64,000 bases of DNA from Candidatus Campbellbacteria bacterium (lineage in GTDB: Bacteria; Patescibacteriota; Minisyncoccia; Phycocordibacterales; EsbW-18). The stretch is taken from contig CP064977.1 in assembly GCA_016699465.1 (NCBI GenBank), positions 409,743-473,742 on the forward strand. The letters run 5' to 3'. Below are positions 7,248 through 41,912 of the stretch, piece by piece (position 1 is the stretch's first letter; every line of letters starts with the position of its first letter). Under the pieces are notes generated by a model. It saw only the letters and a list, made by a program, of their open reading frames with translations, made no database searches and was not told the DNA's origin. The translations under genes and the position numbers were made by a program.

Positions 7248-7964
7248 ATGTCATTTGGTTCATATCTAAAACAACAAAGAGAATCGAATAACTGGAGTAT
7301 CAAAGAGATCGCAGAACGGCTCGGCTTTTCCTCAAGTTACGTGAGCCAGTTGGAGAATGGGACTCGTATGCCGTCTAATAAACAGTTGGCGGTTTTTGCT
7401 AAGGCTTACCAGCTTCCCGAAGAGGAAGTGAAGAAGCATTGGGCAGAGGGCAAGATGCAAAAGGTCAGCATGCAGACTGACTACAAATTCAATCTCAAGG
7501 ATGTCGGCGAGAAGCGCGTACATGAAGCCGCCAACAAACTCGAAGAAGGATTGGAGGAATTGAAAAAGAGTTTTTCCGGTGATGGTCATTTTAAATTGCC
7601 GGTGCTTGTAGCGATTCCTATTGATGATCTCGACGGTCATCTAAGTCGAACGAGCGACTTTGTTTTATTGCCAAAAGATAATGTGGTTTCAGGTCACCGA
7701 GTGTTTGGACTCCGTGTATCCGATCTCACACTCCCCGATGCGGCCATTCTTTCTGGAGACTTCATCATTCTCGATGCCGACATTGCCCCAAAGAATGGCG
7801 ACATCGTGATCATGAGCACACCGGATGGTCTGGTGATGACTTATTACCAAGAGCGGGGCGATCACCTTGAGCTTCGGCCAGAGAAGGAAGGCTTCAAAAA
7901 AACCTACCATCTCAAGGAGAGTAAGATGATAGGCCGATTGGTTTACCACATCAAAAAATATTAA
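7248..7964 (+). CDS. CI/LexA-like repressor (N-terminal XRE HTH plus C-terminal S24-peptidase-like domain)
   Basis: N-terminal HTH (IKEIAERLGFSSSYVSQLENG). C-terminal LexA/S24-like segment (GLRVSDLTLPDAAILSGDFIIL...NGDIVIM). Confidence 0.6.
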   Translation: MSFGSYLKQQRESNNWSIKEIAERLGFSSSYVSQLENGTRMPSNKQLAVFAKAYQLPEEEVKKHWAEGKMQKVSMQTDYKFNLKDVGEKRVHEAANKLEEGLEELKKSFSGDGHFKLPVLVAIPIDDLDGHLSRTSDFVLLPKDNVVSGHRVFGLRVSDLTLPDAAILSGDFIILDADIAPKNGDIVIMSTPDGLVMTYYQERGDHLELRPEKEGFKKTYHLKESKMIGRLVYHIKKY

Positions 7965-8060: not shown

Positions 8061-9644
8061 ATGAACTACTTAATTTACGGCCGTGTCTCTACCTCTCGTC
8101 AGGCCGAACGAGAATTGAGTATTCCGGCTCAAGTGAAAGCGTGTCAGAAGTACGGCATGGATCACGGTTGGAATCTTGCACCTGATGGCATCTACGAGGA
8201 AAAGGGTGAATCAGCTCGAACGGTTGAGCGTCCTCAGCTTCAGAAAATGCTTCATCGGGCAAAGACTGATAACAAGGTCGATGCAATCTTAATGCACAAA
8301 CTTGATCGTATGTGTCGCAACGTTGCGGACTACGCCGCAATAAAGATGATGCTCAAAAAGCACGACGTCCGACTGATCTCGGTGGTCGAGCAATTTGATG
8401 AGTCTTTCTCCGGAGAGCTGGTCGAGAACATCATGTCATCGATCGCTCAATGGACGTCCCAGAACATCAGCTGGGAGGTCAGGAAGGGTCTTAAAGAGGC
8501 CGTAGAGCGTGGCAGGTTCCCCGGATACGCACCAATCGGCTATATGAACGATCGGAAGACCAAATCCCTGATCGTGGATACTGTTCGAGCACCATATGTG
8601 AAGCTGGGGTTTGAGCTTTATGCGACAGGCAAATTTTCTTACTACACACTCGGTGACGAATTGGCAAAACGAGGTCTCAAGAGCAAGGCTGGCAAACGTG
8701 TCTCAAAAAAAGGCGTTGAGCGGATGCTTCAAAATTCGATCTACTACGGTCTTATAAAAACACGATCAGCTACCAATCAGGCAAACTTCCCGTCACTCAT
8801 CACTAAGAAACTGTTTGATGACGTACAGGAGATCATCGCCCAGCACAATCACTATGCCGATCGGTCTCGCAAACACACCTTTCCGCTTACTGGCTTTATG
8901 CGATGTGGTTACTGCGGTTCTATGTTGAGTGGTCAGGTAAAAAAGGGTCATCTGTACTATAACTGCTCTCACCGGCGTGATGCCAAATGTCCGGAAAGAA
9001 AGTACACACGATCAGAGCTTATCGAAGAGCAGGTCGTGGCGTATCTCTCACGAGTCGAGTTGCCACCTAAGTTCAAGACGGTCTTGGATGCGTACTTCCA
9101 GCACTTCGCAAAAGAGCGTATGGATCAGGAGGAAAACGAACGCAAAAGCATTAAGCATGACCTGATCAGAGTGCAACAGCAGATCCGTAATATTGTCGTG
9201 GATCGCTCAAAACGCATCATTGACGCAGAGGTTTTTATAAAGATTCAGGACGAGCTTCTTAAGGAGAAAGAGATGTATCAAGATCGCTTGGCCGAGCTCG
9301 AGGGTAAGTCAGACAAATTCGTGCAGAAATTCAATGAGCTTCTCGACTTCACGGATCACGCCGATGAAGTGTACCAAAAGAGTGGCACTAGTCAGAAGCG
9401 AACGGTACTAAAGCTTTGCATTGAGGGGTTCACAGTCAGAAATCAAAAACTGACGCCGATATGGACGCCAGTCTTTGATGTTCTTATGGACTTACAATTG
9501 TCCAAGTTCGATCCCCCAAAAGTCGGCGGCAAGGGTTCTAAAACCGCCTCAAAAACCCTTGCCGTACCTAAGGTTCTAACTTGGACATCTGGCGGAGAGG
9601 GAGGGATTCGAACCCTCGGACCAGTTTCCCGGTCAGCATCTTAG
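8061..9644 (+). CDS. large serine recombinase (integrase)
   Basis: N-terminal resolvase domain (YGRVSTSRQ, catalytic Ser), recombinase domain and a Cys-rich zinc ribbon (CGYCGS...CSHRRDAKCP). The 3' end overlaps the tRNA-Ser 3' end. Confidence 0.8.
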   Translation: MNYLIYGRVSTSRQAERELSIPAQVKACQKYGMDHGWNLAPDGIYEEKGESARTVERPQLQKMLHRAKTDNKVDAILMHKLDRMCRNVADYAAIKMMLKKHDVRLISVVEQFDESFSGELVENIMSSIAQWTSQNISWEVRKGLKEAVERGRFPGYAPIGYMNDRKTKSLIVDTVRAPYVKLGFELYATGKFSYYTLGDELAKRGLKSKAGKRVSKKGVERMLQNSIYYGLIKTRSATNQANFPSLITKKLFDDVQEIIAQHNHYADRSRKHTFPLTGFMRCGYCGSMLSGQVKKGHLYYNCSHRRDAKCPERKYTRSELIEEQVVAYLSRVELPPKFKTVLDAYFQHFAKERMDQEENERKSIKHDLIRVQQQIRNIVVDRSKRIIDAEVFIKIQDELLKEKEMYQDRLAELEGKSDKFVQKFNELLDFTDHADEVYQKSGTSQKRTVLKLCIEGFTVRNQKLTPIWTPVFDVLMDLQLSKFDPPKVGGKGSKTASKTLAVPKVLTWTSGGEGGIRTLGPVSRSAS

Positions 9645-9679
9645 CAGGATGCTGCATTCGACCGCTCTGCCACCTCTCC
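9591..9679 (-). tRNA. tRNA-Ser(GCU), class II with long variable arm, CCA encoded
   Basis: Folded by hand: acceptor GGAGAGG/CCTCTCC, 3-bp D-stem, anticodon arm GCATC-CTGCTAA-GATGC (anticodon GCT), long variable arm, T-arm GAGGG-TTCGAAT-CCCTC, G73, CCA. Confidence 0.8.
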
Positions 9680-10632: not shown

Positions 10633-11478
10633 TCAGAACGTCCAGATTGTCGAGACGGTCGGCGTCGCCGGGATGGCGAATCGCCCACTTCGGCTGTCGC
10701 TCTCCGACCGGAGGAGCGATAGCTTCAGCTTCATCAGCCGCCCCTGATACGAAACACTCGGCTTGGCGTAGATTGAATATCGTTCCTTGTCGGAAGCGAT
10801 CACGCCACCCGACATCCCGAGGACCCACGGCCCCTTCTCGTACACGTACGACATCTCGCCGTACGCGTACAGACGATCGCCGTCGCCGTAGGCCGTATGG
10901 TAAACGCCGACATACTGCCACCCGAGCTCGGTTGACCATCCACCACGAAGTGTTCGACTGAACGAACCCAGCGGGCCGATGAAGGTCGAGGACTTTCCGC
11001 CTCGGTACGGCGGAGCGTAAAAAATCTCTACGCCCGCCTTCCCCGACCACTTACCCAGAGAAAACTTCCTCTGAATGATGGGATCGATGAAGTGGGCCAT
11101 GACGCCGGCATCGTGCGTCCCGAGGGCTTTGACACCCAAGAGGAACACGTCCCAGTTGTCGTCAGCGTACGTGAGCGACAACCCCGCGATGGGATCGTCG
11201 CTCGCCACGGAGCCGAAGGACTTGAACGCGGATCGCGAAGACCAACTGGTCTCCAGCGTCCACAGATCGTCCTTCTCGAGCACCGTGACTGGAGCGATGT
11301 TCACCCCGGTCACCAGGTTCGTGGTCATGGCGAGCTGGTCGCCGTTGACCTCCTGACCATGCGCCGCGATGGCACAGGCCAGAGGCCAGCCCACCAACAG
11401 CGCGAGGACGATCCACAGTAGAGGCTGTGCGGTCTTCTTGTTGACTCGAGCAACGAGGGCCGTGTTCAGACTCTTCAC
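10633..11478 (-). CDS. outer-membrane beta-barrel-like protein (high-GC island)
   Basis: Signal peptide, alternating beta-strand pattern, C-terminal ...WTF aromatic terminus. About 62% GC versus about 43% in the flanking genes. Confidence 0.4.
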   Translation of the reverse strand: MKSLNTALVARVNKKTAQPLLWIVLALLVGWPLACAIAAHGQEVNGDQLAMTTNLVTGVNIAPVTVLEKDDLWTLETSWSSRSAFKSFGSVASDDPIAGLSLTYADDNWDVFLLGVKALGTHDAGVMAHFIDPIIQRKFSLGKWSGKAGVEIFYAPPYRGGKSSTFIGPLGSFSRTLRGGWSTELGWQYVGVYHTAYGDGDRLYAYGEMSYVYEKGPWVLGMSGGVIASDKERYSIYAKPSVSYQGRLMKLKLSLLRSESDSRSGRFAIPATPTVSTIWTF

Positions 11479-11610: not shown

Positions 11611-12200
11611 TTACAAGTGGCTTGCTTCAAGAGCCCGATTAATCTCAATGAGCGCCCTACGATGTGTGGGAGCAAATAAAGAAATGTGCTCAGAGGAGAA
11701 GTGGTACGGTGGGGACAAATGTTGTGTATATGCAGAATCACCTTGGACGTAACCGAGTTCATGGAGAATGCGCAATACCAGAAGAACTTCAAATGAAGCT
11801 ATATTGTCTTGTGTGACCTCAGGACCAGCGAGTGCAGAGAGTCCATCCCACACCAAATCAAACAAAACACTTCCTTGTTCTTCATCGACGATAAGTCGAC
11901 GAACAAGGTGGAGTACCCGAATGGCAAGCATTCTTTTTGTCTATCTTCATGTTCAAAAAAAATTGATGAAACAGGCGTAACGTTAGTGATACGCCACCCA
12001 TCACGAGATCGGACAAGCGATACATCTGACACAGAAGAAAATTGCAAACCATATCGATGACGAGAACGTCCTTCGCGTGATGACTGACAACGCGCAAACA
12101 CCACGCCCATATCGGCGGTAAACAAACGATAGGTACGACTCGCCTCACCGACGTTATACGCGCCGAGAACAATTGCCTTTGTATGATGCTTGGAATACAT
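11611..12200 (-). pseudogene. recO: recO, disrupted by a frameshift near 11900-11935 (or sequencing error)
   Basis: N-terminal OB-fold region (KAIVLGAYNVGEASRTYRLFT...) in one frame. RecO C-terminal region (LVRRLIVDEEQ...FEVLLVLRILHELGY) in the overlapping frame. Confidence 0.45.
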
Positions 12201-12328: not shown

Positions 12329-15300
12329 TTAGTGTATATTGAAAATATAGGATTCCTCCCCAGTGTCTCCAATGGAAACAGAGAGATCTGTAAGATTTGT
12401 TGTCTTCATGAGTGCTTCTTTGTATTCCTCAATAAGTTTTTTTCCGTCTTCGTTTGTAACAACAGAAAGTGCCGGAGCATCTGACGCAGTCAATCCTACT
12501 GTTTTTCTAAAATCTTGAATAGCACGCATCAAATCACGGACACTTCCTTCTTTCTGCAATTCAGGCGTCACCACGGTATCAAGCTCAACATCCCAACCTG
12601 CGTCCTCTTTGAAAAAGACTTCTTTTACATTTACTTCATCGGAAATCAACGCAACAAGTTCTGGAAACTTTTGTAGCGTAAGATTTCCACCTCGAAGTGT
12701 CAGCGATGCGAGTGGCTGACGCACTTTTACTCCTGCTGTCATACGTGCCTCAAGAGCCCGCGACGCAACATCTCGTGTTTTCTGCATGTTTTTTACAATC
12801 TCTTTTTCCTTCTTTGATTCATGACCAAATATTCCAGTATCTGCTTTTGGCCACGTCTCCAAGTGCACGCTTTCTAACTCACCGCCAATGGAAGTATATA
12901 TTTCTTCAGCAAAGAACGGTGCAAATGGTGCCAGTATCTGAGCAAGTGTTTTCAGTACATGGTGTGTCGTTGCAAGTGCCTGTTCCCTATCCTCAACATT
13001 TTCTGACTTAAATCTCTCTCGTGAACGGCGAATGTACCACGTAGAAAGATCCTGAACAAAATCTCGAATTGCACGCGTAGGTTCAAAAACATGGTACGTC
13101 TCAAGACCTTGCGTTACATCAGCAACAAGCTCATTGAGTCGCGTCAAAATCCACACATCAAGAACACGTTTGGAGACTGGAGACTGGAGACTGGAGACTG
13201 GAGCTTCATCCTTGTACATCTCATAGAACTTCACCACATTGCGAGTAATCGTAAATACTTTTTTTGATACCTCATCAACTGTTTTTTCATCAAAGTTTTT
13301 TGAATCACCTGGTTGATTCACGGAATACATCCAAAAACGAATGACATCAACTCCGTATTTTGCTATTGCCTCCCATGGATTCACCACGTTACCAATCGAC
13401 TTACTCATCTTTTTACCTTTTGCATCCAAAATGTGTCCAAGGCAAATAACATTTTCAAATGCGCGCCCTTTCCCCATGAGAGCACCCACAGCATGCAGTG
13501 TGTAAAACCACCCGCGCGTCTGATCAATTGCTTCAGAAATGTACTGCGCAGGATATCCTTGCCCATCAATCCATTCTTTATTTTCAAAAGGATAGTGATC
13601 TTGTGCAAATGGCATAGCGCCTGAATCAAACCATACGTCCATCACTTCAGGAGTACGCTTCATGCGTGCAGTACATTTTGGACACGTCACCTCTACCTCA
13701 TCGATGTATGGCTTGTGTAAATCAATATCAAAGGTGTCATTGTGTGGAAGTGGTACAAAGCCAAATTCAAGCACGTGTGCAAGTTCAAGTGGTGTTGTTG
13801 CCATAATACGCTCAGCACGCGCATCATCTGCACCTTCCAAAATTGCTAGAACAGTAGAAAAACCGATTCCGTGAGTGACAACAATAATGTGTTCATCCTC
13901 ATGCCGACTATCAATGTCATACAAAAACTCTGCAAAACGTCGTCGAGCATCTGCATAACTTTCCCCATTAGGAAGCGCATCAGTATATCTATATCCATTC
14001 GCTTTTCTAAACGCAAACACTTCTTTGTGTTGTTTGCCATTAAAATCACCATACCCGAGCTCTCGCAATCGCTCATCAACAACAATGGCATCCGGAGATA
14101 TACCGAGCTCTTGTGCAAGAATATTTGCCGTCTCACGAGTTCGCACAAATGGCGACGTGTATAGTGTCGTCACTTTTTCTTTCTGAATTTTTTTACTTGC
14201 GTGCACAACCTGCTCTTTTCCTTTCTCCGTTATGTGATCTGGTCCATTTGGATCTGCACTCGCAGTGTCTAACACATTATTCTGCGCTTCTCCGTGCCGA
14301 ACAAACGTAAATGTATTTCCACGGGACTTTGTAATCTTTTTGAGATGTTCAATAGATGATACGACTTCCGTGTGATGACAGTGCTCACAATTCCAGACAG
14401 GTAATGGAGTTCCCCAGTACCTATCACGAGAAAACGCCCAATCTTTTACCTCACGAAGCCATTCACCAAAACGTCCTTCTTTAATATGTTCTGGTACCCA
14501 ATGAATTTTTTATTTTCCTTAACTAATTCATCACGCAACTCCGACATGCGAATGTACCACGAATCCCGCGCATAGTAGATAAGTGCCGTATGACAGCGCC
14601 AACAGTGTGGGTATGTGTGTTCAAATTTTTCTTTCTTAAATAAAAGATTTCGTCCTGCCAAATCTTTAATAACTTCAACGGCAGTTGATTCATCACGCAC
14701 AAAGAGTCCTTCATAGAGCCCTGTGCCTTGTACAAAATGCCCCGTCTCATCTACAAGATGCCACTTCGGCAATCCAACCTTGTTTCCCAATTCAAAATCT
14801 TCCTGTCCGTACATCACCGCAGTGTGCACAATACCTGTACCGTCTGTTGTCGTCACAAAATCCGCAGAGTACACCTTGTACGCATTCTGCATTTTTTCTT
14901 TTTCAGGGCCAGAAATAAGCGTGTTCAAAAATGGAAAAAGTGGTTCGTACGTAAGACCAATAAGTGCTTCACCTAAACATTCTTCAACAACTTCATACCC
15001 TTCACCCAACACAGAAAGTCGATCCCTTCCAAGCCACAAAAATTCACCACCATGAGAAACTTTTACATACGAAATTTTTTCTCCAATAGCAAGACCAACG
15101 TTTCCAAGAAGTGTCCACGGCGTTGTCGTCCATGCAAGTAAGTATGTATTTTCTTCTCCTACAAGTGCAAACTTCACATACACCGAAATATCTTTTACAT
15201 CTTCATATCCCTGCGCGAGCTCATGGCTTGAAAGTGCTGTCCCACAACGCGGACACCACGGGAGCACTTTGTAATCCTTATAGAGAAGTTCTCGCTTGTG

Positions 15301-15807
15301 CACATGCGCAACAATATTCCACAACGACTCCATGTAACTTGAGGTGTATGGAATGTAGGCATCATTCAAATCAACCCAGTACCCAATGCGCTGTGTAAAT
15401 TCTTGCCACTCATCAATGTACTTCCACACGCTCTCTTTACACTTTTGATTGAATCGATCAATACCATATTCTTCAATTTGTTTTTTTGAGGTCAGACCAA
15501 GCTGTTTTTCAACTTCAATCTCAACAGGAAGCCCGTGTGTATCCCAGCCCGCTTTTCGGCGCACATGAAAACCACACATCGTCTTGTAACGAGGAATAAC
15601 ATCTTTAAAGGCACGCGAGATAAGGTGGTGAATTCCTGGACGACCGTTTGCTGTTGGCGGACCTTCGTAAAATACAAATTCACCTTCAGGAGAATCCTTT
15701 GCGAGTGTTTTTTGAAAAATATCTTTCTCTTTCCACTCTCGTAAGATTGCCTCTTCGCCTTTTGCTACATCACTTTTCTCGTATTCTGTCTGTTCCATAC
15801 TACCCAT
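12329..15807 (-). CDS. ileS: isoleucyl-tRNA synthetase with an embedded histidine-phosphatase domain; -1 frameshift at a poly-A run near 14505-14512
   Basis: HIGH-region (PPTANGRPGIHH), CP1 editing motifs (TTTPWTL, TGIVHTA), DWAFSRDRYWGTPLPVW, DLHKPYIDEV, DVWFDSG, DQTRGWF, KMSKS. A PGAM/SixA-like domain (FVRHGEAQNN...LYTSPFVRTRETA...VVTHG) is inserted in frame. The two ORF-track pieces join by hand translation across a 6-A run. Confidence 0.8.
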
Positions 15808-15855: not shown

Positions 15856-17535
15856 TTACATCTTTTCAGGAGTTGAAATGCCGAGTATGTGGAGGCCATT
15901 TTCAAGCACTGTGGAAAGCGTCTTTGTCAGAGCAACTTTGTAAGGTGCATGCGGATTGTTTGTGTCAACAATTTTCTCTTGCGCGTACCATGCGTTAAAT
16001 GCACCCGAAAGTTCAGTTACATATTGCGAAATATACTGCGGAGCATACCCACGGAGCGCGAGGAGTGTTTTTTCAGGGAATCGAGACACCATGCGTTCGA
16101 AATCAGAAAGTTCCGGGCGCTCTCCATCACACGATCCGACAATGTGCGCCTCAGCCGCCTTCTGTAAAATAGATTTTGCACGCACAAGCGTGTACTGAAT
16201 ATACGGACCTGAATCACCTTCAAACGACAATGATCGCTCTGGATCAAACGTGCTATTTTTTTCTGTTCCCTGTTTCAGTACCATGTACTTAATAGCACCG
16301 ACCGCAACCGCATTCGCGATTGCGTCTGTCGTACCAACTCCTCGCTCACTCACCTTTTCCTGCGCGCGATGTATCATATCTTGCAAGAGCGACTCACCAG
16401 TAATTACATTTCCTTTTCGTGATGACATCTTTCCTGTCGTCAACACCATCATGCCGTGATGTATGTGTTTGAATCGTCCTGTAAATTCTGGACGAAGCAG
16501 TTCAAGAGCTTTGAATACGACGTTAAAGTATTGTTCTTGCTCGACAGCGGTAATAGTAATACTTTCATCAAATGTACATCGGTCCATTTTAAGCACCGCA
16601 AGCCCGAGCTCCTTCCCTTCATACGTAAGCACTCCTTCTTTTGTAATAAAGACACGAGTATGGAGTCCGTGCACCTCTCCCGGAAACACAATTGCACCTT
16701 CACTTTTTTGAAAAATTCCTTTTTCTAAACCTTCTTCGACTAATGCTCTTCCCGCTTCAAGTGTTTGACTCTCAAAAAAGTATTCATCGAAGCGTGTCCC
16801 CAACAGTGCGTATATTTCCTCAAACGCCTTGAGCGATGCTTCTCGCCCTTTCTGGTACATATCCTCAACACTCGTGTCGTGTGTGTACACTTTTTTATTT
16901 ATTTCCACAATTTCTTTTTGTGCAGTCTCATCTGTCTCATACATCTCATGTCCATACGCGTATGCTTTTCCAATTTCAGGAATATCTGTCGGATCAACAT
17001 TTCGTTTCATCATGCCCCACAACGCTTTTGCAACATGTAACCCAACATCACCTTGGTAATTTGCGCGAATAACGCGCGCTCCCGCATTTTCAAAAATACG
17101 CGTAAGCGTTTCACCAATGGTGTTACTCATCAAGTGTCCAATATGAAATGGTTTGAATGGATTTGGTTGTGTGTACTCAACCATGATTGTTTTTCCAGAA
17201 AATGTTTCATTCGTTCCGTACGCAGTCCCTTGTTTTAAAATAGTTTCTAATTCGTGTACAAAAAAATCACGTGAAAGTGTGAAATTAATGAACCCCGGGC
17301 CCGCCACTTCAATTTTTTCAACTCCCTCTACCTGTGCGCTCAACAGATGTTGCACAATTTTTTCTGCTACCGCACGAGGATTTTCACCAACCTGTTTCGC
17401 AAGTGCAAGTGCCACAGTACACGCAAAATCACCATGCGCCATTTCAGCTGGACGTTCTAAAACAACCACGGCTGGAGGATATCCGAGCGCTTCACATGCA
17501 TCTGTAATTTTTTGTATCAACGCTTTTTCAAGCAC
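15856..17535 (-). CDS. argS: arginyl-tRNA synthetase
   Basis: HIGH motif FHIGHL, ANYQGDVGLH, class I ArgS architecture. Confidence 0.85.
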   Translation of the reverse strand: MLEKALIQKITDACEALGYPPAVVVLERPAEMAHGDFACTVALALAKQVGENPRAVAEKIVQHLLSAQVEGVEKIEVAGPGFINFTLSRDFFVHELETILKQGTAYGTNETFSGKTIMVEYTQPNPFKPFHIGHLMSNTIGETLTRIFENAGARVIRANYQGDVGLHVAKALWGMMKRNVDPTDIPEIGKAYAYGHEMYETDETAQKEIVEINKKVYTHDTSVEDMYQKGREASLKAFEEIYALLGTRFDEYFFESQTLEAGRALVEEGLEKGIFQKSEGAIVFPGEVHGLHTRVFITKEGVLTYEGKELGLAVLKMDRCTFDESITITAVEQEQYFNVVFKALELLRPEFTGRFKHIHHGMMVLTTGKMSSRKGNVITGESLLQDMIHRAQEKVSERGVGTTDAIANAVAVGAIKYMVLKQGTEKNSTFDPERSLSFEGDSGPYIQYTLVRAKSILQKAAEAHIVGSCDGERPELSDFERMVSRFPEKTLLALRGYAPQYISQYVTELSGAFNAWYAQEKIVDTNNPHAPYKVALTKTLSTVLENGLHILGISTPEKM

Positions 17536-17896: not shown

Positions 17897-19156
17897 TTAT
17901 ACAAACGACTCAGGTACGGGAAAGCGTTCTGCAAGATCTTGTATTTCCTTGTGTACTTTTTCTTTTACGTTTGTATCTGTGTGATGTTTCAAAACAGTAA
18001 TCATACGCTCTGCAACAAATCGACACTCTTCTTCTGAAAACGTGCGCGTTGTGATTGCGGGCGTGCCGAATCGAATCCCTGACGGATCAAGAGGTTTGCG
18101 CGTGTCATCAGCAATGACATTTTTATTTACAGTAATACCCACTTCATCGAGTGCGCGCTGCGCTTCGTCACCTGTTACACCAAGCGAACCAAACACATCC
18201 GCAAGAATAAGATGATTGGATGTCCCCCCACCTATCAACCGAATATTTTCTTTCAAAAACACATCTGCCATTGCCTGCGCATTTTGCACAACCTGTTGTG
18301 CATAGATAGAAAACTTTGGCGACAGTGCTTCGCCAAATGCAACCGCCTTTGCTGCGATCACGTTCATATGTGGGCCACCCTGTAACCCAGGAAAGACCAT
18401 TTTATCTATCTTTTTTGCAATCTCTTCATTATCTCGTATCAAAATCATCCCACCACGCGGACCACGTAATGTTTTATGTGTTGTTGTCGTCATCACATCA
18501 AAACCAAAATCAAATGGATTCTTCACCGCCTTCCCCGCAATGAGCCCCGCAATGTGTGCAACATCCATCACAGCAAGCGCACCAACTTCTCGAGCAATCG
18601 AAACAAATTTTTCATAATCCAACTCACGCGAATATGCCGAGTATCCAGCGAGCAACATTTTTGGTTTTTCTTTGAGTGCAGTTTCACGCAGTGCATCGTA
18701 ATCAATTTCACCCGTTTCAACATTCTTCATTCCGTATCGTACAAATTTAAAAATTTTTGTGATTGCTGTCACAGGATGTCCATGTGTTAAATGACCTCCG
18801 TGCGACAAATCCATTCCGAGAACAGTGTCACCTGGTTCAAGAAGCGCAAAGTACGTTGCAATGTTTGCTGGGGCGCCAGAAAGTGGTTGTACATTTACAA
18901 AACCTGCACCAAATAATTTTTTTGCACGCTCAATCGCCAACACTTCTATCTGATCAGTAAATTCTTGACCACCGTAGTACCGCTTACCCGGATATCCTTC
19001 CGAATACTTATTTGTCATTACTGATGAGAGTGCCTCACGAACCGCGCGAGAGACATAATTTTCAGACGGAATAAGCTCAAGCCCTTCCACTTGCCGTTGT
19101 TCTTCTCCTTGAAGAATTTGATATATTTCTTCGTCTTGTTTTTTAATATATGACAT
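17897..19156 (-). CDS. glyA: serine hydroxymethyltransferase
   Basis: GYPGKRYYGG, HLTHG, TTTTHKTLRGPRGG motifs. Confidence 0.9.
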   Translation of the reverse strand: MSYIKKQDEEIYQILQGEEQRQVEGLELIPSENYVSRAVREALSSVMTNKYSEGYPGKRYYGGQEFTDQIEVLAIERAKKLFGAGFVNVQPLSGAPANIATYFALLEPGDTVLGMDLSHGGHLTHGHPVTAITKIFKFVRYGMKNVETGEIDYDALRETALKEKPKMLLAGYSAYSRELDYEKFVSIAREVGALAVMDVAHIAGLIAGKAVKNPFDFGFDVMTTTTHKTLRGPRGGMILIRDNEEIAKKIDKMVFPGLQGGPHMNVIAAKAVAFGEALSPKFSIYAQQVVQNAQAMADVFLKENIRLIGGGTSNHLILADVFGSLGVTGDEAQRALDEVGITVNKNVIADDTRKPLDPSGIRFGTPAITTRTFSEEECRFVAERMITVLKHHTDTNVKEKVHKEIQDLAERFPVPESFV

Positions 19157-19161
19157 AGGAT

Positions 19162-19746
19162 TTAGAGTAAACGTTTAACATGTTTCCAAATTGCTTCTTC
19201 CACTTTTTCTCGCGAGTCATTTGCGTCCACCATAAACCAGCCACGTTTCTCAGCCAGAGCATGATGCACCGAACGAACTTTCTGCATCAATACATCATCG
19301 CTTTCGTGTTTGTGTCCTTCTTCCTTTCCATCAAGGAATCGTTCACCATCCATGAACACACAGAGATCTTCCGAGAGCAAGTGGCTGTTGAGTTCCTGAA
19401 GAAATGCTTCATCAACACCTGCTCCAACCCCCCAAGCTATTCCCGTTCCAATATAATCTTCAACTACAATCCATTCGCCACTTTCAATACGGTCACGTAA
19501 TACGCTGTCGTATTGTGTTCTATTAAGAATTTGCAAAATTTGAAACTCACGTGCAGATAAGTTGTGTGGATTTCCATTTCGAAGATACGCGTTAATCATT
19601 GGACCTGACGGTGGAAGTTCATACAATGGGTATTTAAGATAGTGTGCCTGCTTCCCTTCGCGCGTTAAATGCTCAACGAGCACACGCGCCTGTGTTGTTT
19701 TTCCAAGATTGTTGATGCCGTATAAGGCGATGAGTTTTCCACGCAT
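19162..19746 (-). CDS. tmk: thymidylate kinase
   Basis: P-loop GINNLGKTT. dTMP-kinase length and lid region. Confidence 0.6.
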   Translation of the reverse strand: MRGKLIALYGINNLGKTTQARVLVEHLTREGKQAHYLKYPLYELPPSGPMINAYLRNGNPHNLSAREFQILQILNRTQYDSVLRDRIESGEWIVVEDYIGTGIAWGVGAGVDEAFLQELNSHLLSEDLCVFMDGERFLDGKEEGHKHESDDVLMQKVRSVHHALAEKRGWFMVDANDSREKVEEAIWKHVKRLL

Positions 19747-19754
19747 AAATGTTT

Positions 19755-20261
19755 TTATTTTTTCGAGAAAAAATCGTCAAACTGATGTCCAACACTATTC
19801 TCTGGGTTATTTTTATTAAAAAACTTCTCACTCCTTTCTAAAATGCAGACTTTCTCAATACCCCCATCAATCATTACATTCCAACATGGCTCACAACACC
19901 ACCAATGCCCCCACAAATACAGAGTTGCTCCTGCGATATCATTACCTTTTGCCCGAGCATCTGCAAGAGCGCGTTGTTCACTGTGATTTTTTGGGTGACA
20001 CCCTTCACAGAGTTCATACCCTTGTCCTGTTGGAATGTTTTGTTTTACTCGCTCACATTCGTGACTTTTATGATACTCGCTTCCATTTGCTCCAAAACCT
20101 ATAATCGTATTATTTTTCACAAGAATACTCGCATTCGGCATAACCGCGTCAAGTGACTGCGAAAAAGCAAAAAGTTTGGCAATCTGCATATATGAATTTG
20201 ACAAAGAAACGTATTCGAATTCCCTGTTTTTTGGCATATATGGGTACGCTATTTTTTCCAT
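19755..20261 (-). CDS. dCMP/cytidine deaminase family protein
   Basis: HSEQRA...CEPC zinc-binding deaminase motifs. Confidence 0.7.
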   Translation of the reverse strand: MEKIAYPYMPKNREFEYVSLSNSYMQIAKLFAFSQSLDAVMPNASILVKNNTIIGFGANGSEYHKSHECERVKQNIPTGQGYELCEGCHPKNHSEQRALADARAKGNDIAGATLYLWGHWWCCEPCWNVMIDGGIEKVCILERSEKFFNKNNPENSVGHQFDDFFSKK

Positions 20262-20306: not shown

Positions 20307-21143
20307 ATGTCTCGTTTTGATGAAATCTATAAAGACACACTCTCCCAGATTATGACAAGGGGGGTTCCCGAATTAAATGCTAGAACTGGACACGAAACAC
20401 GAGCATTACCAGGGGTTAGCTTTGTGTTAGATGTAGAAAAAGATGGATTTCCACTCCTTACGCTCAGAAAGATACCTATAAAACTTTTTATTGCTGAACA
20501 AGTTTGGTTTATATCAGGTAGCAGAAAACCTGAAGATTTTCTTGGAACATTTACGCATATTTGGGATGATTTTACGAACCCAGGAAATGTTGTTACTGTT
20601 GCCTATGGATATCGTTGGAGAAAACACTTTGGCAGAGATCAGCTTAGTCTTCTTGTTGAACTCTTAGAAAAAGACCCCAGTTCTCGTCATGGAGTTATTG
20701 TTACGTGGGATCCTGCACAAGATGGTCTCGGCGGAACGCAAAAAGCAAATCTGCCCTGCCCGTATACGTTCACGGTAAATATCATCGGCGGTAGGTTAAA
20801 CCTACATAATATGGTTCGTTCAAATGATATGTTGCTTGGCTTTCCCCATGACGTGGCAGGGTTTGCACTACTTCAATGCATTCTTGCGCAACGACTCAAT
20901 GTGCGTGTCGGTGTGTACTCACACAGCATCTCTAACGCACACGTATATGATACTCACTATGACGGTGCGTACGAGATGCTTAAGCGACCAACAAATCATA
21001 AACAGATCTCATGTACTCTTCCTCAAAAAACATTTGAACGAGCCGAAAAAAAAGATGTAACACTTGTAGAGGAAATCGCCAACATGTTCTCCGAACAGTA
21101 CACACCACAACCTCCCATTACTGGATTACATATAGTATTATAA
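20307..21143 (+). CDS. thyA: thymidylate synthase (ThyA family)
   Basis: YGYRWRKHFG, PCP(Y) catalytic-Cys region, RSNDMLLGFPHDVAGFALL. Confidence 0.7.
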   Translation: MSRFDEIYKDTLSQIMTRGVPELNARTGHETRALPGVSFVLDVEKDGFPLLTLRKIPIKLFIAEQVWFISGSRKPEDFLGTFTHIWDDFTNPGNVVTVAYGYRWRKHFGRDQLSLLVELLEKDPSSRHGVIVTWDPAQDGLGGTQKANLPCPYTFTVNIIGGRLNLHNMVRSNDMLLGFPHDVAGFALLQCILAQRLNVRVGVYSHSISNAHVYDTHYDGAYEMLKRPTNHKQISCTLPQKTFERAEKKDVTLVEEIANMFSEQYTPQPPITGLHIVL

Positions 21144-36526: not shown

Positions 36527-36838
36527 GTGGATAATATTTAGAATATAGAATATGAAAGACAGCGTAAGAACATATACAGAATATCAGAAAAAACCTTTTT
36601 CAGAAACAAAAACACCGCCTTGTGAGCGATGTTTTTGATTGAATGCTTTGTTCTGGCGGCTACCTACTCTTGCCCTTACGGACTACCATCGGCACTAATG
36701 AGCTTAACTTCCGAGTTCGGAATGAGATCGGGTGTATCCCCATCGTTAAGCCACCAGAACAAAATTTTCAATCAGAATGAACTCTGACAACTGCATAAGT
36801 ATACACAAACACTGAAGAGTGGCCCTTTTTTGAAAAAT

Positions 36839-37107: not shown

Positions 37108-37261
37108 AGTGGTGGACCTGGAGGGATTCTAACCCCCAACCTCTTGGTTTAACAAGCGCTCTGACAAGGCTCATCCGTTAGGGATTTGAACCCCTGAAAC
37201 CAACGGCTGTGTTGATTTCCCCATCCGTGGGTTATAGGACAACCCATTTTGAGCTACAGGT
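37108..37261 (-). ncRNA. 154-nt tRNA-like element of unknown identity, downstream of the 23S 3' end
   Basis: Perfect 7-bp terminal helix GGACCUG...CAGGUCC followed by A-CCA. Internal anticodon-arm-like GGGTT-GTCCTAT-AACCC and two T-loop-like motifs. Does not fold as a canonical single tRNA or as a 5S rRNA. Confidence 0.25.
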
Positions 37262-37714
37262 CCAAAATATTTCCACTCTTCAATGTTTGTGTAGTATTCC
37301 CCGACGTATACATCGGAGCAAAAAGAAATCAGCGCGCTATGAATCGATTTTCAGATTACCTAACAGGAGATGTCGACGAATTAGTACATCTCGGCTCCAC
37401 ACATTACTGTGCGTCCACCTAATGCCTATCAACGTGATCATCTCTCACGGGTCTTAATGATTTCTAATCTTGAAGTTGGCTTCCCTCTTAGATGCTTTCA
37501 GAGGTTATCCATTCCCGACATAGCTACGCAGCGGTGCACCTGGCGGTACAGCTGCCACACCAGAGGTCAGTTCATTCCGGTCCTCTCGTACTAGGAACGA
37601 ATCTTCTCAAAAATCAGCGCCTGCAGCAGATAGGAGACCAACCTGTCTCACGCATGTTTCCAACGATTGCTCGTTGCATTGGACTATACCTTATACCTCG
37701 CTTTGCGAGTAAAC

Positions 37715-38375
37715 CCAAAGTTCAAATTTCAAAGCTCAAAATTTTGGATTTTGTGCTTTGTGCTTTGGATTTTCTTCTGCATCGCAGAAGGCATGTTGAC
37801 ATGTAGTCTCTACGGGTAATTGTGAATTCTATTGAGGGGCCGACGCAGGGTCAGCCCGGAACTTTCTGATCGAGTCAGATGATCCAGCTCGTCAGCATGT
37901 AGCTGGCGAAAAAGACCAAGACGCTGAGCGCGATCTTGATGTCGCGATCGACGTTCCTCATTTCTTCCTTGGTAGGGTGAACGAAGAAGTCTCGACGACT
38001 GCACGCAGGAAGAAATCCCGGCATGAAAGAACCTCCTTTCTGGACAGAAATGTCCTCAATAGAACTCACAATCATTCCCTCGGAATTACCCATAAAGGGT
38101 TTTCCCGATATAAGTCAACTTACTTCATACACATTACTATGTATGACCGCCGTGATATGATTGGTTCCTTTTAGTTTTCATCTTAAAAGACGAAAAGATT
38201 TTTTGGGCAACCGATTTCATTTTAAAATCGGAAGTTTTATTAGACAACATTACTTCGAAGGGATTCAGACTGTTTTGAAACCAATCACAAAATCCAAAGT
38301 TCAAAATCCAAAAAAATTCTAAGGTTTAAATCTTAAAAAACTTTTTTGAGCTTTGTGCTTTGAGCTTTTGATTTC
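37715..38375. repeat. IVS-like insertion in 23S, bounded by palindromic AT-rich repeat copies
   Basis: Copies of AAAGTTCAAAATCCAAAAAA...TTTTGAGCTTTGTGCTTTGAG at both ends (37715-37775, 38290-38375). A GC-rich interior has short ORFs with weak similarity (SRRDFFVH) to the four-helix-bundle protein. Confidence 0.55.
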
Positions 38376-38411
38376 AGTTCCAGAACGGTCTGAACCCAGC
38401 TCGCGTACCTT

Positions 38412-38444
<33 letters not shown>

Positions 38445-39044
38445 TCTCCAGCCCCGGGATAAGGTGAGCCGACATCGAGGTGCCGAACACCACCGTCGCT
38501 ATGGACGCTCGGGTGGTACCAGCCTGTTATCCCCAGAGTAGCTTTTATCCGTTGAGCTCCCCCCGCATCTAAAGCGAAAGGTCGGATCACTATGCTCTAC
38601 TTTCGTACCTGCTCGACATGTCCGTCTTGCAGTTAAGCCCTCTTTTGCCATTACACTATCGGCACGGTTTCCATTCGCGCCTAGAGGACCTTTATAGACC
38701 CCTCCGTTACTTTTTAGGAGGGATTCGCCCCAAACAAACTACCTGCCAGATACTGTTCCCTACCGTTTTTGCCGTCAGGGTTAGAACGTACAATTCAAAA
38801 GAGTGGTATTTCATATTTCGAGTCCAGCAGAGCCAAAACCCTGCCTTCAACCTCTCCCACCTATGCTACGCATTTAACTCGTACGCCCAATATCAAGCTG
38901 TAGTAAAGCTTCTGGGGTCTTTTCGTCTAGCTGCAGGTAGAGGGCATCTTCACCCCCATTGTATTTTCACCGAGCGAGTCCTCGAGACAGTTCCCCAGTC
39001 GTTACACCATTCGTGCGCGTCAGAACTTACCTGACAAGGAATTG

Positions 39045-39083
<39 letters not shown>

Positions 39084-40849
39084 CAGGGCTTATACAGTTC
39101 AGCATATACCTTGCGGCACACACCCCCCGTACTTGACCTTCTGGCATTGGTCAGGTGTCACCCCCTATACATCCTCTTGCGAGTTCGCAGGGAGCTGTGT
39201 TTTTGATAAACAGTCGCCAGGGAGACTTTCGCTGCGGCCCACGTACTGCTACGTGGGCAGACCTTATTGCTAACTTACGGTCGCTTTTTTGCCGAGTTCC
39301 TTGAGGACCTCTCACTCGTTCGCCTTACTCTACTCGAGCTGAACACCGGAGTCGGTTTGCGGTACGGTCTGTGTGTATTTATTCTTAGAAGATTTTCTTG
39401 GAAGCGCGCTCTATACCATTCCCCAACCCGAAAGTTGAGTTCTCGAAAACACTCGGGATAGTGCCTGCCGGATTTACCTAACAAGCGCCCTCGTGTCCCC
39501 GACACAAATCCAATAATGTGCGATATATACAGCACTCCGTCTCTCCATCGAAATACACCCAGGTCATGGAATATTAACCATGTGTCCATCATGTTCGGAT
39601 TTCTCCATCCACTTAGGCCCGACTAACCCTTCGCTGATTACCATCGCGAAGGAAACCTTGTTCTTTCGGCGTGCGGGTATTTCACCCGCATTGCGGTTAC
39701 TTGTACCAACATTCGCTCTTCGGAACGCTCCACCGTGGCTCACGCCTTCGGCTTCATCGCAGATCCAAATGCTCTCCTACCACTGCACATGCACGAATGC
39801 ACATACAATCCTCAGTTTCGGTACAATGCTTAGCCCCGATTGTCTGTGGCGCGAAGTCTCTAAATGAGTGAGCTGTTACGCTTTCTTTAAAAGATGGCTG
39901 CTTCTAAGCCAACTTCCTCAGTGTTTAAGAAACTTCACCTCCTCGACTGTGCACTTAGCATTGATTTTGGGACCTTAACTTGAGATCAAGGGCTGTTTCC
40001 CTTTTGACCAGTGGAGCTTAGCCCCCACGGTCTAACTGCCTAACACTTTACTCTTGGTATTCGGAGTTTGATTGGTCCAGCGAGATTTCTCCCTATCCAG
40101 ACCATCCAGTGCTCTACCCCCAAGAGGTACGTTAGACGCCAGCCCAAAAGCTGTTTCGGAGAGAACCAGCTATTACTAGGTTCGATAAGCTTTTCACTCC
40201 AACCCACAAGTCATCCGAAGATTTTGCACCATCAACCGGTTCGGGCCTCCCTCCATCTTTCGACAGAGTTCACCCTGCTCATGGGTAGCTCACCTAGCTT
40301 CGGGTCTTATGCAGACGACTAAAAGTAGAAGTTGGAGGCCAGACTCGAAGATACCGAAGTACCTTTTCGCCTGACTTCTAACTTCTACTATGTTCGCGCT
40401 ATTCACACTCGGTTTCCCTACAGATTCATCCGACAAAGGACTTATCTTACGCCGTGTGCATAAACTCGTTGGCTCATTCTTCAATAGGCACGCCATGACG
40501 GTCTTGCGACCGCGCTGACTCCTTGTAGGCATATGGTTTCAGATCTATTTCACTCCCCTCTCCGGGGTTCTTTTCACCTTTCCCTCGCGGTACTAGTTCA
40601 CTATCGGTCTCAATGTGTATGTAGCCTTGCCGGTTAGTTCCGGCGGATTCCCTCAGGCTATTCGTGTCCTGAGGTACTCAGGAACGGTAACTAGAAAGAT
40701 GTGTTCTTTTCGCATACAGGACTATTACCCTCTAGGGTCGCGCTTTCCAGCGCATTCTGCTAAGAACACATTTTGTAACTTTCTCCTTATCCGAAGACAG
40801 GCGTTACCGCCCTACAACCCCGCACGCATCACGCTGTACGCGATGCGTA

Positions 40850-40940
40850 AATCCAAAATCCAAAGTTCAAAATCCAAAAAAATTCTAAGATTTTAATTCT
40901 TAAAAACTTTTTTGAGCTTTGTACTTTAAGCTTTGTGCTT
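40850..40940. repeat. short hairpin-only copy of the same palindromic repeat in the 23S 5' domain
   Basis: aatccaaagttcaaaatccaaaaaaattctaag...ctttttttgagctttgtactttaagctttgtgctt. Confidence 0.5.
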
Positions 40941-41912
40941 ACCCATCACATCCAATGTGATGCGCACGGTTTGGGCTTCTCCCGTTTCGCTCGCCGCTAC
41001 TAAGGGAATGACAATTGTTTTCTTTTCCACTGGGTACTGAGATGTTTCACTTCCCCAGGTATGCTCCTCATATTGCTATGAGATTATCGAGGGTTACTCG
41101 ATAGGGTTTCCCCATTCGGAAATCTCCGGATCAAAGGTTGCTTAACACCTCCCCGAAGCTTATCGCAGTTACACCACGTCCTTCATCGCCACATTGAACC
41201 AAGGCATCCACCATACGCCCTTTAAATCTCCCGTTAGGAAATCTAAAAACCGTCTCGCATACAACCGCCTACAAAGTGGTTGCATGCTACTTTCATATTT
41301 CTACTTGATTGTTTCATTGGAGCTAGATTAACCAATGAAACTACCTGCTCTTGTCTTACTCAAAAGACAAGAATTTTTGATTCTTTTTGCCCCGACTTTT
41401 TATAGTCGGGATACTACCTATGCAGTTGTCAAAGTTCATCTACCTTGTATGAGAACAAAAAAACCGCTTTTTCAAGCGGAGATTTCTGAGGCACACCGAT
41501 TGTGCGCATTTAGATGCTCCGCGTCGATATGCAGTTAGCTGGTGTATTCATACTAGGTGTTGCCTATTATAGCCATGCAGAGCACCGTGTCAAGGATTTA
41601 GGTCCCAAAAATGCCTCTTTAGTGCAATCAAAAAATGAGACAAAAAACCCTTACAGAATAAAGGTTTTTAAGACCGTCTATAAAAGTCCTGAAAAGTCCC
41701 TGGGGAGAACCTGTGGGTAAGATTTCATTCGCCTCACTTTCTTGGAAACACGCATCGTTTTCTGCTGAAAACGCGCTCCCTCTCGAGCTCAGCTCTCCGA
41801 GAGTTTTCCAAAAAAGAAGGCTTCACCCCTAAGGTTTGGATACAAAAAAATAATGGAAAAGAGCCCGACGGACAAAGCTTTTAGACTCTTTTCCACGGGC
41901 TCTTGCACCCAC

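Follow-up and report, generated by a model that had tools for sequence, protein, structure and literature searches.

Aminoacyl-tRNA synthetases are among the most conserved enzymes, and those of bacteria are usually regarded as acquiring few additional domains. The ileS gene on a 64,000-nucleotide stretch of a Candidatus Campbellbacteria genome (contig CP064977.1, positions 409,743 to 473,742; hereafter the window) raises the question of whether an isoleucyl-tRNA synthetase (IleRS) can carry a second enzyme nested within it, and what such an enzyme would be for. The original prediction, made from the nucleotide letters, described a continuous IleRS over 12329-15807 with a PGAM/SixA-type histidine phosphatase domain inserted at 13830-14310, and held a phosphatase within an aminoacyl-tRNA synthetase to be undescribed. 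Our analysis of the locus indicates that the nested phosphatase is real, ancient and widespread, and that it has apparently remained undescribed though its sequences are public and generically annotated.

Architecture of the synthetase and its nested domain

The locus encodes a type-2, GXHH-variant IleRS of a Campbellbacteria-like member of the Paceibacteria/Parcubacteria. Reconstructed with one A restored to a homopolymer, as set out below, the 1159-aa protein scores 870.5 bits against the TIGR00392 ileS profile (cut-off 621.4) in two stretches split by the insert, and its best solved match is P. megaterium IleRS2 (8c8w, 824 bits). Its type-2 features comprise a connective peptide 1 (CP1) editing domain, in which aa 200-401 match the editing-domain structures 1wk8, 1wny and 1ue0 (E 1e-27 to 1e-33), an Anticodon_1 domain with DUF5915 and the lack of a C-terminal zinc-binding domain; at full length, the structures that the protein matches best are those of IleRS2 and of eukaryotic IleRS. 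Its predicted activity is the aminoacylation of tRNA(Ile) specifically with isoleucine. The K, M, S and K of the KMSKS loop are present in all 121 aligned full-length IleRS sequences, the set behind every count out of 121 given here, and the final S in 117. The GIHH motif was found in 127 of the surveyed orthologues; it is common to most of the close ones, with HYGH, HIGH or HFGH in a subclade. In IleRS2, GXHH is a known variant of the HIGH motif and confers mupirocin hyper-resistance (PMC10485003); intrinsic mupirocin hyper-resistance is predicted for this organism from the motif. The protein is homologous to the MupA and MupB exception models as an IleRS2 and is not a member of either (789 and 783 bits, cut-off 1900); nor does it belong to the NCBIfam family ileS_w_GNAT (288 bits, cut-off 1999), and there is no GNAT match in Pfam. 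No second IleRS copy was seen in the window.

A complete histidine phosphatase domain interrupts this synthetase. On the reconstructed protein, Pfam splits tRNA-synt_1 in two around His_Phos_1 (PF00300; E 2.9e-31, 109-113 bits, cut-off 21.7, profile positions 2-170 of 194), the profile result that the original prediction had anticipated. The peptides it quoted are all present on the minus strand in one open frame from 14509 to 12329, and this frame is uninterrupted inside the insert and at both junctions. The interval it gave lies inside the insert, which is longer (Table 1).

The position of the insert was resolved by alignment to solved structures. Residues 491 and 693 of the query align with residues 476 and 484 of 8c8w, and therefore about 200 residues stand in place of a linker of about seven. 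Because the HUP catalytic core of PmIleRS2 comprises residues 40-168 and 513-632 (PMC10485003), the alignment places the insertion site in the connective-peptide region, where some 30 residues remain before the Rossmann (HUP) core resumes with its second half. The original prediction placed the domain where canonical IleRS has only a short linker or zinc-knuckle segment, and this reading is supported by the profile matches, the structure models, the mapping on solved IleRS and the orthologues. Two cysteine pairs, C474-x2-C477 and C709-x2-C712, bracket the insert; Cys occupies the first two positions in 93-94 of 121 orthologues and each of the other two in 93, and all four are kept in 93. They probably bind a metal, and the equivalent four in T. 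thermophilus IleRS presumably bind zinc.

Structure prediction is confident over the synthetase as well as over the insert. An AlphaFold2 model of a full-length orthologue (P0121, 119-sequence alignment) has a mean predicted local distance difference test (pLDDT) score of 90.5 and a predicted template modelling score of 0.83, with blocks over the insert and both linkers at pLDDT 93-97. In Foldseek, the body of this model matches structures of IleRS2 (8c9d, E 3.5e-87) and yeast IleRS-tRNA structures. In the C-terminal linker of the inserted form, conservation of P688, H689 and N690 in the PLPHN motif reaches 90% or more, and this motif suggests docking onto the IleRS body, because it is near-invariant in inserted forms and degenerate in the standalone forms described below, where the position reads P.PVN, PTKVD or RHVVN.

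Among solved proteins, the insert is closest in sequence to PhoE/YhfR of Geobacillus stearothermophilus (1EBB, 1H2E; E 1.2e-17), with which it aligns residue for residue at RHGE..N, R..ETA, DERLRE and THG. An AlphaFold2 model of the isolated domain (pLDDT 93.2) has the alpha/beta phosphoglycerate-mutase-like fold, with 1h2e matched by Foldseek at E 2.7e-14 and a template modelling (TM) score of 0.75. The Foldseek relatives, all of them small-molecule phosphatases, are PhoE, PspA (4ij5), the riboflavin-pathway phosphatase HFP (9mmh), GpgP (Rv2419c), CobC and TIGAR (E ~1e-13 to 1e-14, TM 0.7-0.76). These broad-specificity or metabolite histidine phosphatases share with the insert the fold and all catalytic residues; unlike it, they are free-standing small enzymes, and because identity is only 20-28%, their substrate specificity cannot be transferred to it.

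Comparison with curated models narrows the family and leaves the specificity without a name. Scores fall far under the cut-offs for cofactor-dependent phosphoglycerate mutase (dPGM; dPGM_arch 89-91 bits against 225, pgm_1 32-36 against 81.7, GpmB 55-60 against 261), SixA (TIGR00249, 30.4 against 74.5, with the match limited to the first ~70 residues), CobC (TIGR03162, 74-78 against 162.9), PspA (65-69 against 350) and the bifunctional RNase H/acid phosphatase discussed below, and for this reason we assign a branch-1 histidine phosphatase and no specificity. A role as the cell's phosphoglycerate mutase is rejected on the dPGM models and on the 121-sequence columns, which conserve neither the dPGM-type residues that follow the proton donor nor the Asn that follows the second His. 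The domain is PhoE-like and, by these profiles, neither a mutase nor SixA; of the earlier PGAM/SixA-type label, the superfamily stands and the SixA assignment falls. Phosphatase activity through a phospho-histidine intermediate is predicted from the conserved active site.

Table 1. Features of the ileS locus and its immediate neighbours in window coordinates.
Feature	Coordinates	Strand	Basis or remark
argS, conserved upstream neighbour	15856..17535	(-)	Pfam Arg_tRNA_synt_N, tRNA-synt_1d, DALR_1
ileS, type-2 IleRS	12329..15807	(-)	TIGR00392 profile, structure matches; 1159 aa with one A restored
Class I signature motif, non-canonical GIHH (GXHH, not HXGH), aa 58-61	15625..15636	(-)	Sequence
CP1 editing domain	14605..15210	(-)	Matches 1wk8, 1wny, 1ue0
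A6 homopolymer, frame switch, context AAT-AAAAAA-TTC	14506..14511	(-)	Three-frame translation, comparison with L087
First Cys pair, C474-x2-C477, putative zinc knuckle	14378..14389	(-)	Sequence
Inserted segment, aa 480-695: short native helix, linker, full His_Phos_1, C-terminal linker with PLPHN	13724..14371	(-)	
Histidine phosphatase superfamily branch 1 domain, PF00300 envelope aa 501-669	13802..14308	(-)	Pfam
RHG motif, R504-H505-G506; H505 predicted phospho-accepting His	14291..14299	(-)	Aligned with PhoE RHG
R556, second phosphate-binding Arg	14141..14143	(-)	121/121
E583, predicted proton donor, DERLRE motif	14060..14062	(-)	Aligned with PhoE DERLRE
E616, invariant Glu, GES motif	13961..13963	(-)	121/121
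H646, second catalytic His (THG)	13871..13873	(-)	121/121
PLPHN linker motif, C-terminal junction	13739..13753	(-)	Near-invariant in inserted form
Second Cys pair, C709-x2-C712, putative zinc knuckle	13673..13684	(-)	Sequence
KMSKS class I signature loop, aa 800-804	13397..13411	(-)	Sequence, alignment
Anticodon_1 anticodon-binding domain	12713..13159	(-)	Pfam
DUF5915, type-2 C-terminal domain, after Anticodon_1	12595-12380	(-)	Pfam
recO, conserved downstream neighbour, frameshifted	11611..12200	(-)	Two overlapping open reading frames

Conservation, distribution and alternative forms

The same insertion, for which an orthologue search had been proposed, recurs in all 120 of the best full-length homologues (54-98% identity, 1104-1324 aa), each with both PF00133 and PF00300, and in at least 285 species-representative Patescibacteria genomes (a scan of one genome per species, with the insert in 285 of the first 600 pattern matches listed). 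Named sources of the 120 homologues are Candidatus Campbellbacteria (78%), Paceibacterota, Pacebacteria and Minisyncoccia. With a query centred on the junction, the architecture was also recovered from Uhrbacteria, Niyogibacteria, Nealsonbacteria and Magasanikbacteria (36-53% identity), and the insert-bearing genomes also include Zambryski-, Taylor-, Vogel-, Nomura- and Yonath-bacteria. Some insert-bearing metagenome-assembled genomes in the third-party annotation records, loosely labelled, bear the name Saccharibacteria.

The active site is far better preserved than the domain that holds it. R504, H505, R556, E616 and H646 are invariant (121/121), a constancy that matches that of the KMSKS loop; position 583 is Glu in 112 sequences and Asp in nine, and N511 and G506 are kept in 115 and 119 of 121, respectively. 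Measured from W472 to D696, the insert spans 216-232 aa in all but one of the 121 sequences. Mean pairwise identity is 40% in the insert against 73-80% in the catalytic core, which puts the insert among the least conserved parts of the protein. Because the active site is strictly kept in a fast-evolving domain, these alignments indicate that selection acts on the predicted phosphatase catalysis. One orthologue (P0165, L088 5001-8975, 1324 aa) has an extra C-terminal HD phosphohydrolase domain (PF01966, aa 1128-1189) beside the nested phosphatase.

The domain also occurs as a separate protein. A query with the insert retrieved five standalone proteins (P0241-P0245, 195-212 aa) with 38-41% identity to the window insert and 63-69% to each other. 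They align with the insert over its full length, from 'SRGNTY' at the N-terminus to 'F.F.P..VN.DFE' at the C-terminus. Three contigs (L083, L084, L085) have enough flanking sequence, and in each of them an ileS without the insert, encoding 948 or 1011 aa with an HYGH motif, follows the standalone gene after 3-58 bp (the L085 copy ends at 742 aa at the contig end), in the same synteny as elsewhere. The N-terminal half of the insert-less IleRS has 54-57% identity to a subset of the insert-bearing HYGH/HFGH-type IleRS (e.g. a Taylorbacteria genome), against a median of 44%. Neighbour-joining trees built for the IleRS core and for the phosphatase domain, unbootstrapped and in the latter case star-like, both place the split lineage within the insert-bearing radiation, which tentatively favours a secondary fission over an ancestral operon followed by insertion. 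In either case the split form gives a Rosetta-stone relationship and indicates that the phosphatase can work as a separate protein and IleRS without it in cis.

To classify architectures, the insert was searched with HMMER against 1.84 billion cluster representatives, yielding 821 matches at E ≤ 1e-10; 144 new representatives among the best 150 of the 821 were sorted with hidden Markov models built from IleRS segments, and selected ones were checked with Pfam and NCBIfam. Two tandem phosphatase domains are present at the canonical site in six proteins (P0258, P0274, P0291, P0346, P0371, P0324). Past the end of the catalytic domain and ahead of the anticodon-binding domain lies a second site, occupied alone in P0363 and P0385 (TIGR00392 947 and 787 bits) and together with the first site in P0287, P0315, P0390 and P0316. 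Two valyl-tRNA synthetases (ValRS; best NCBIfam matches to valine-tRNA ligase models) also carry the domain, P0351 in two copies and P0250 in four. In P0351 (L089 5001-8833), one copy comes after the editing domain and the other occupies the loop that corresponds by homology to the IleRS site, with Val_tRNA-synt_C and the anticodon-binding part called as a separate downstream open reading frame (ORF); P0250 (L090/L091 366-3851) comes from low-coverage 3.9-kb contigs and ends inside the fourth copy. All catalytic residues are kept in 33 of 35 complete domain copies, the exceptions being copy 2 of P0351 and copy 1 of P0258. All long proteins among the best 150 of the 821 representatives are IleRS or ValRS.

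Reading-frame break and gene neighbourhood

The continuous IleRS of the original prediction is broken in the assembly. As assembled, ileS consists of two ORFs (15807..14446 and 14275..12329), and three-frame translation puts the N-terminal 434 codons in another frame than the remainder, with the switch at the A6 homopolymer of Table 1. The switch lies 36 codons upstream of the first motif that the original prediction quoted, and the insert and its junctions are untouched. One added A yields the 1159-aa IleRS, which is 98% identical, without gaps, to P0121, an uninterrupted database protein. The short-read contig that encodes P0121 (L087) is collinear with the window at 94.8% nucleotide identity across argS-ileS-recO, including both insert junctions, and has A7 where the window has A6 (blastn, single-base gap). 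A single uninterrupted reading frame is thus lacking from ileS in the window and present in P0121 and L087. A like break, in the A5 run at 11938-11934, splits the neighbouring recO, which in L087 has A6 there and encodes an intact RecO of 196 aa. Because one-A homopolymer deficits occur in both ileS and recO, with the extra A in L087, comparison of these sequences makes a long-read assembly error the most likely source of the ileS frameshift, with a small residual chance that it is real. The same type of error in two genes suggests homopolymer undercalling throughout the assembly. Programmed frameshifting or transcriptional slippage at the ileS A-run was considered and rejected, as the 0-frame T-AAA-AAA-T is a poor slippery heptamer, L087 has one more A and an intact frame, and recO shows the same one-A deficit. 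Among related contigs, ileS is broken into several ORFs in L001 and L002, and just after ileS in L001 (7807-8752) fragments of His_Phos_1 and tRNA-synt_1 lie on the opposite strand in what looks like an inverted-repeat artefact of the contig end.

The interruption at 14511-14506 could be taken to mean that the insert junction is an assembly chimera or that the window gene is a true pseudogene. A chimera is rejected on the junctions themselves, both of which are common to orthologues from hundreds of independent assemblies and are retained in the collinear short-read contig. As for decay, the lesion is a single missing A in a homopolymer, the neighbouring recO has a like lesion, and IleRS is essential. 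We regard artefact or decay as an extremely improbable account of the locus.

The order of dTMP-pathway genes, argS, ileS, recO and, further on, glyS is conserved, and the argS-ileS pair recurs in L001, L002, L083, L084, L087 and L088. Upstream of the pair, the deoxythymidine monophosphate (dTMP) cluster of the window comprises SHMT (17897-19156, minus strand), thymidylate kinase (19162-19746, minus), dCMP deaminase (19755-20261, minus) and ThyA (20307-21143, plus); related contigs carry dUTPase/DCD and ThyX in its place. On the other side, a 281-aa ORF at 10633-11478 (minus) has about 60% guanine plus cytosine against about 43% for the genome, a signal-peptide-like N-terminus, an end reading ...TIWTF and no Pfam match; its 84% nucleotide identity in L087 marks it as a real gene of odd composition, possibly horizontally acquired. 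A LexA/S24-like helix-turn-helix repressor (7248-7964, plus) and a large serine recombinase (8061-9644, plus), whose 3' end overlaps tRNA-Ser(GCT) (9590-9679, minus), resemble an integrative element or prophage remnant situated at this tRNA gene. Elsewhere, the window holds 23S rRNA (38306-41234, minus) and 5S rRNA (36651-36758, minus) with tRNAs between them. A 151-nt Rfam tRNA match at 37113-37263 (minus) that ARAGORN missed adjoins tRNA-Leu, tRNA-Cys, 5S and 23S rRNA; it has an insertion of about 86 nt in the D-loop region and may be intron-bearing or otherwise unusual. There is no 16S rRNA in the window, and the rRNA operon appears unlinked.

Possible function of the nested phosphatase

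We consider it probable that the protein combines an IleRS with a nested phosphomonoesterase that would act as an autonomous module on a small molecule and whose dose would be coupled to class Ia synthetases. In such a bifunctional enzyme, H505 would attack a phosphomonoester held by R504, R556 and H646, with E583 as proton donor; a phospho-histidine mechanism is the usual chemistry of the histidine phosphatase superfamily. The autonomy of the module would be reflected in the lineage whose ileS lacks the insert and in which a gene just upstream of ileS appears to supply the phosphatase as a protein of its own. Selection would favour tying the phosphatase dose to class Ia synthetases, whether physically or through co-expression, rather than an exact geometry beside the tRNA 3' end, because the domain occupies several loops in one to four copies, exists as a separate gene product, is acidic (mean net charge of the insert -6.3) and has metabolite-acting relatives. 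The substrate would be a small diffusible phosphomonoester, a nucleotide or a phosphorylated metabolite, as for the nearest relatives. We hold this substrate class to be the most likely, ahead of a tRNA terminus, with modest confidence, and it is the weakest step of the proposal.

Several observations weigh against this account. The confidently predicted linkers, together with a PLPHN motif kept only in the inserted form, hint at a fixed docking geometry that may be of functional relevance. The exclusive association with IleRS and ValRS among the long proteins in the best 150 of the 821 representatives may point to a substrate linked to aminoacylation, which we rank second. The copies at multiple sites could stem from one event spread by recombination and not from independent selections, and the phosphatase activity and its substrate are read from conservation and homology.

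Some of these observations favour a phosphatase mechanistically integrated with class Ia aminoacylation, its substrate being generated or handled by IleRS and ValRS (for example a tRNA acceptor end carrying a phosphate, a by-product nucleotide or an inhibitor that mimics the adenylate); we regard such integration as possible though doubtful. A related form, which takes up the idea of the original prediction, has the domain remove in cis a 3'- or 2'-phosphate, or open or clear a 2',3'-cyclic phosphate, on the tRNA acceptor end, or hydrolyse AMP, pyrophosphate or a pAp-like product or by-product at the enzyme itself; it would thereby assist repair or turnover for class Ia synthetases. It would account for the restriction to IleRS and ValRS, for the confident linkers and conserved junction motif, and for a site in the connective-peptide region, which flanks the acceptor-binding side of class I enzymes; the phosphatase gene still adjoins ileS when split, and the orthologue with the HD phosphohydrolase domain adds an anecdotal point. 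At least three different loops, one to four copies and a separate-protein form are, however, hard to square with one geometry at A76. The acidity of the insert and the metabolite phosphatases that are its nearest relatives also speak against it, the gene could have stayed beside ileS after fission through inherited synteny, with no selection for linkage, and we know of no enzyme of the histidine phosphatase fold that processes RNA 3' ends. We judge this cis activity unlikely.

It is quite improbable that the domain is instead a protective module, an explanation drawn wholly by analogy, in which it would destroy a phosphorylated or phosphoramidate-type inhibitor of IleRS or ValRS or reverse the phosphorylation of the synthetase by a kinase toxin. 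The GXHH motif of mupirocin hyper-resistance suggests a history of inhibitor pressure, tandem amplification to two to four copies with intact active sites resembles dosage selection, and some superfamily members cleave P-N bonds or act on proteins (SixA, PGAM5, Sts). NCBIfam curates ileS_w_GNAT, and by analogy the GNAT domain in some IleRS might be protective. Against protection, there is no PADLOC defence-model match, on which ground we rejected a defence-system component, SixA lies far under its cut-off and no kinase toxin is present in the neighbourhood; to our knowledge, no phosphorylated natural inhibitor of IleRS or ValRS has been described. A catalytically dead insert that stabilises the connective-peptide region or mediates protein-protein contacts would fit the poor conservation of the insert sequence, but the catalytic residues are kept across the 121 orthologues and in nearly all additional copies, including the standalone forms, and we find such a pseudo-enzyme very hard to credit. 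The account that we prefer, then, remains a dose-coupled phosphomonoesterase acting on a small molecule.

The closest described systems share parts of this architecture. Bacterial IleRS2 (P. megaterium 8c8u, 8c8v, 8c8w and 8c9d; T. thermophilus 1ile) has the same HUP core, CP1 editing domain, KMSKS loop, anticodon-binding domain and type-2 C-terminal domains, and differs in having only the short linker (8c8w 476-484) where the window protein has a full phosphatase; we found no solved or published IleRS with a nested phosphatase. The family ileS_w_GNAT (NF040702), on which we found no literature, is a precedent for a bacterial IleRS with an additional enzyme domain, its accessory being a GNAT (N-acetyltransferase). 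In the Rv2228c-type bifunctional RNase H/acid phosphatase of mycobacteria (NF005567), a branch-1 phosphatase is likewise joined to a nucleic-acid enzyme, and the insert matches the phosphatase half (E 1.5e-20); unlike the nested domain, that fusion is end to end and with another partner enzyme, and the insert reaches 74 bits against a cut-off of 326. Other accretions to aminoacyl-tRNA synthetases, such as INS in the IleRS2 ARD2, also place extra modules in surface loops or at termini; further examples are the leucine-specific domain of LeuRS and the eukaryotic WHEP, GST and UNE domains. Those modules are mostly non-catalytic binders of RNA or protein, whereas the domain described here is a complete second enzyme with an intact active site, present in up to four copies and separable as a gene.

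The view that a phosphatase within an aminoacyl-tRNA synthetase is undescribed agrees with our survey, in which we found no description of a histidine phosphatase in any such enzyme across about 8 million open-access papers and preprints (subscription-only papers lay outside its scope). The architecture is nevertheless abundant in public databases. A 2026 preprint that catalogues 96,219 IleRS sequences by domain makes no mention of a phosphatase or of Patescibacteria. The annotation 'class I tRNA ligase family protein' hides the phosphatase from metabolic reconstructions of Candidate Phyla Radiation (CPR) genomes. What sets the case apart is an accessory that is itself a complete and conserved enzyme, nested in the catalytic core of an essential synthetase across a large part of the Patescibacteria and, in related lineages, multiplied, moved to other sites or split off. 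If true, integration of the phosphatase with aminoacylation would be a new repair, turnover or self-protection activity in CPR synthetases, and thus a new auxiliary chemistry of translation in minimal-genome organisms. If the two are not tied, the family would still illustrate plainly how domains nest and split in an essential enzyme, a natural case of use to protein engineering and to the study of genome reduction.

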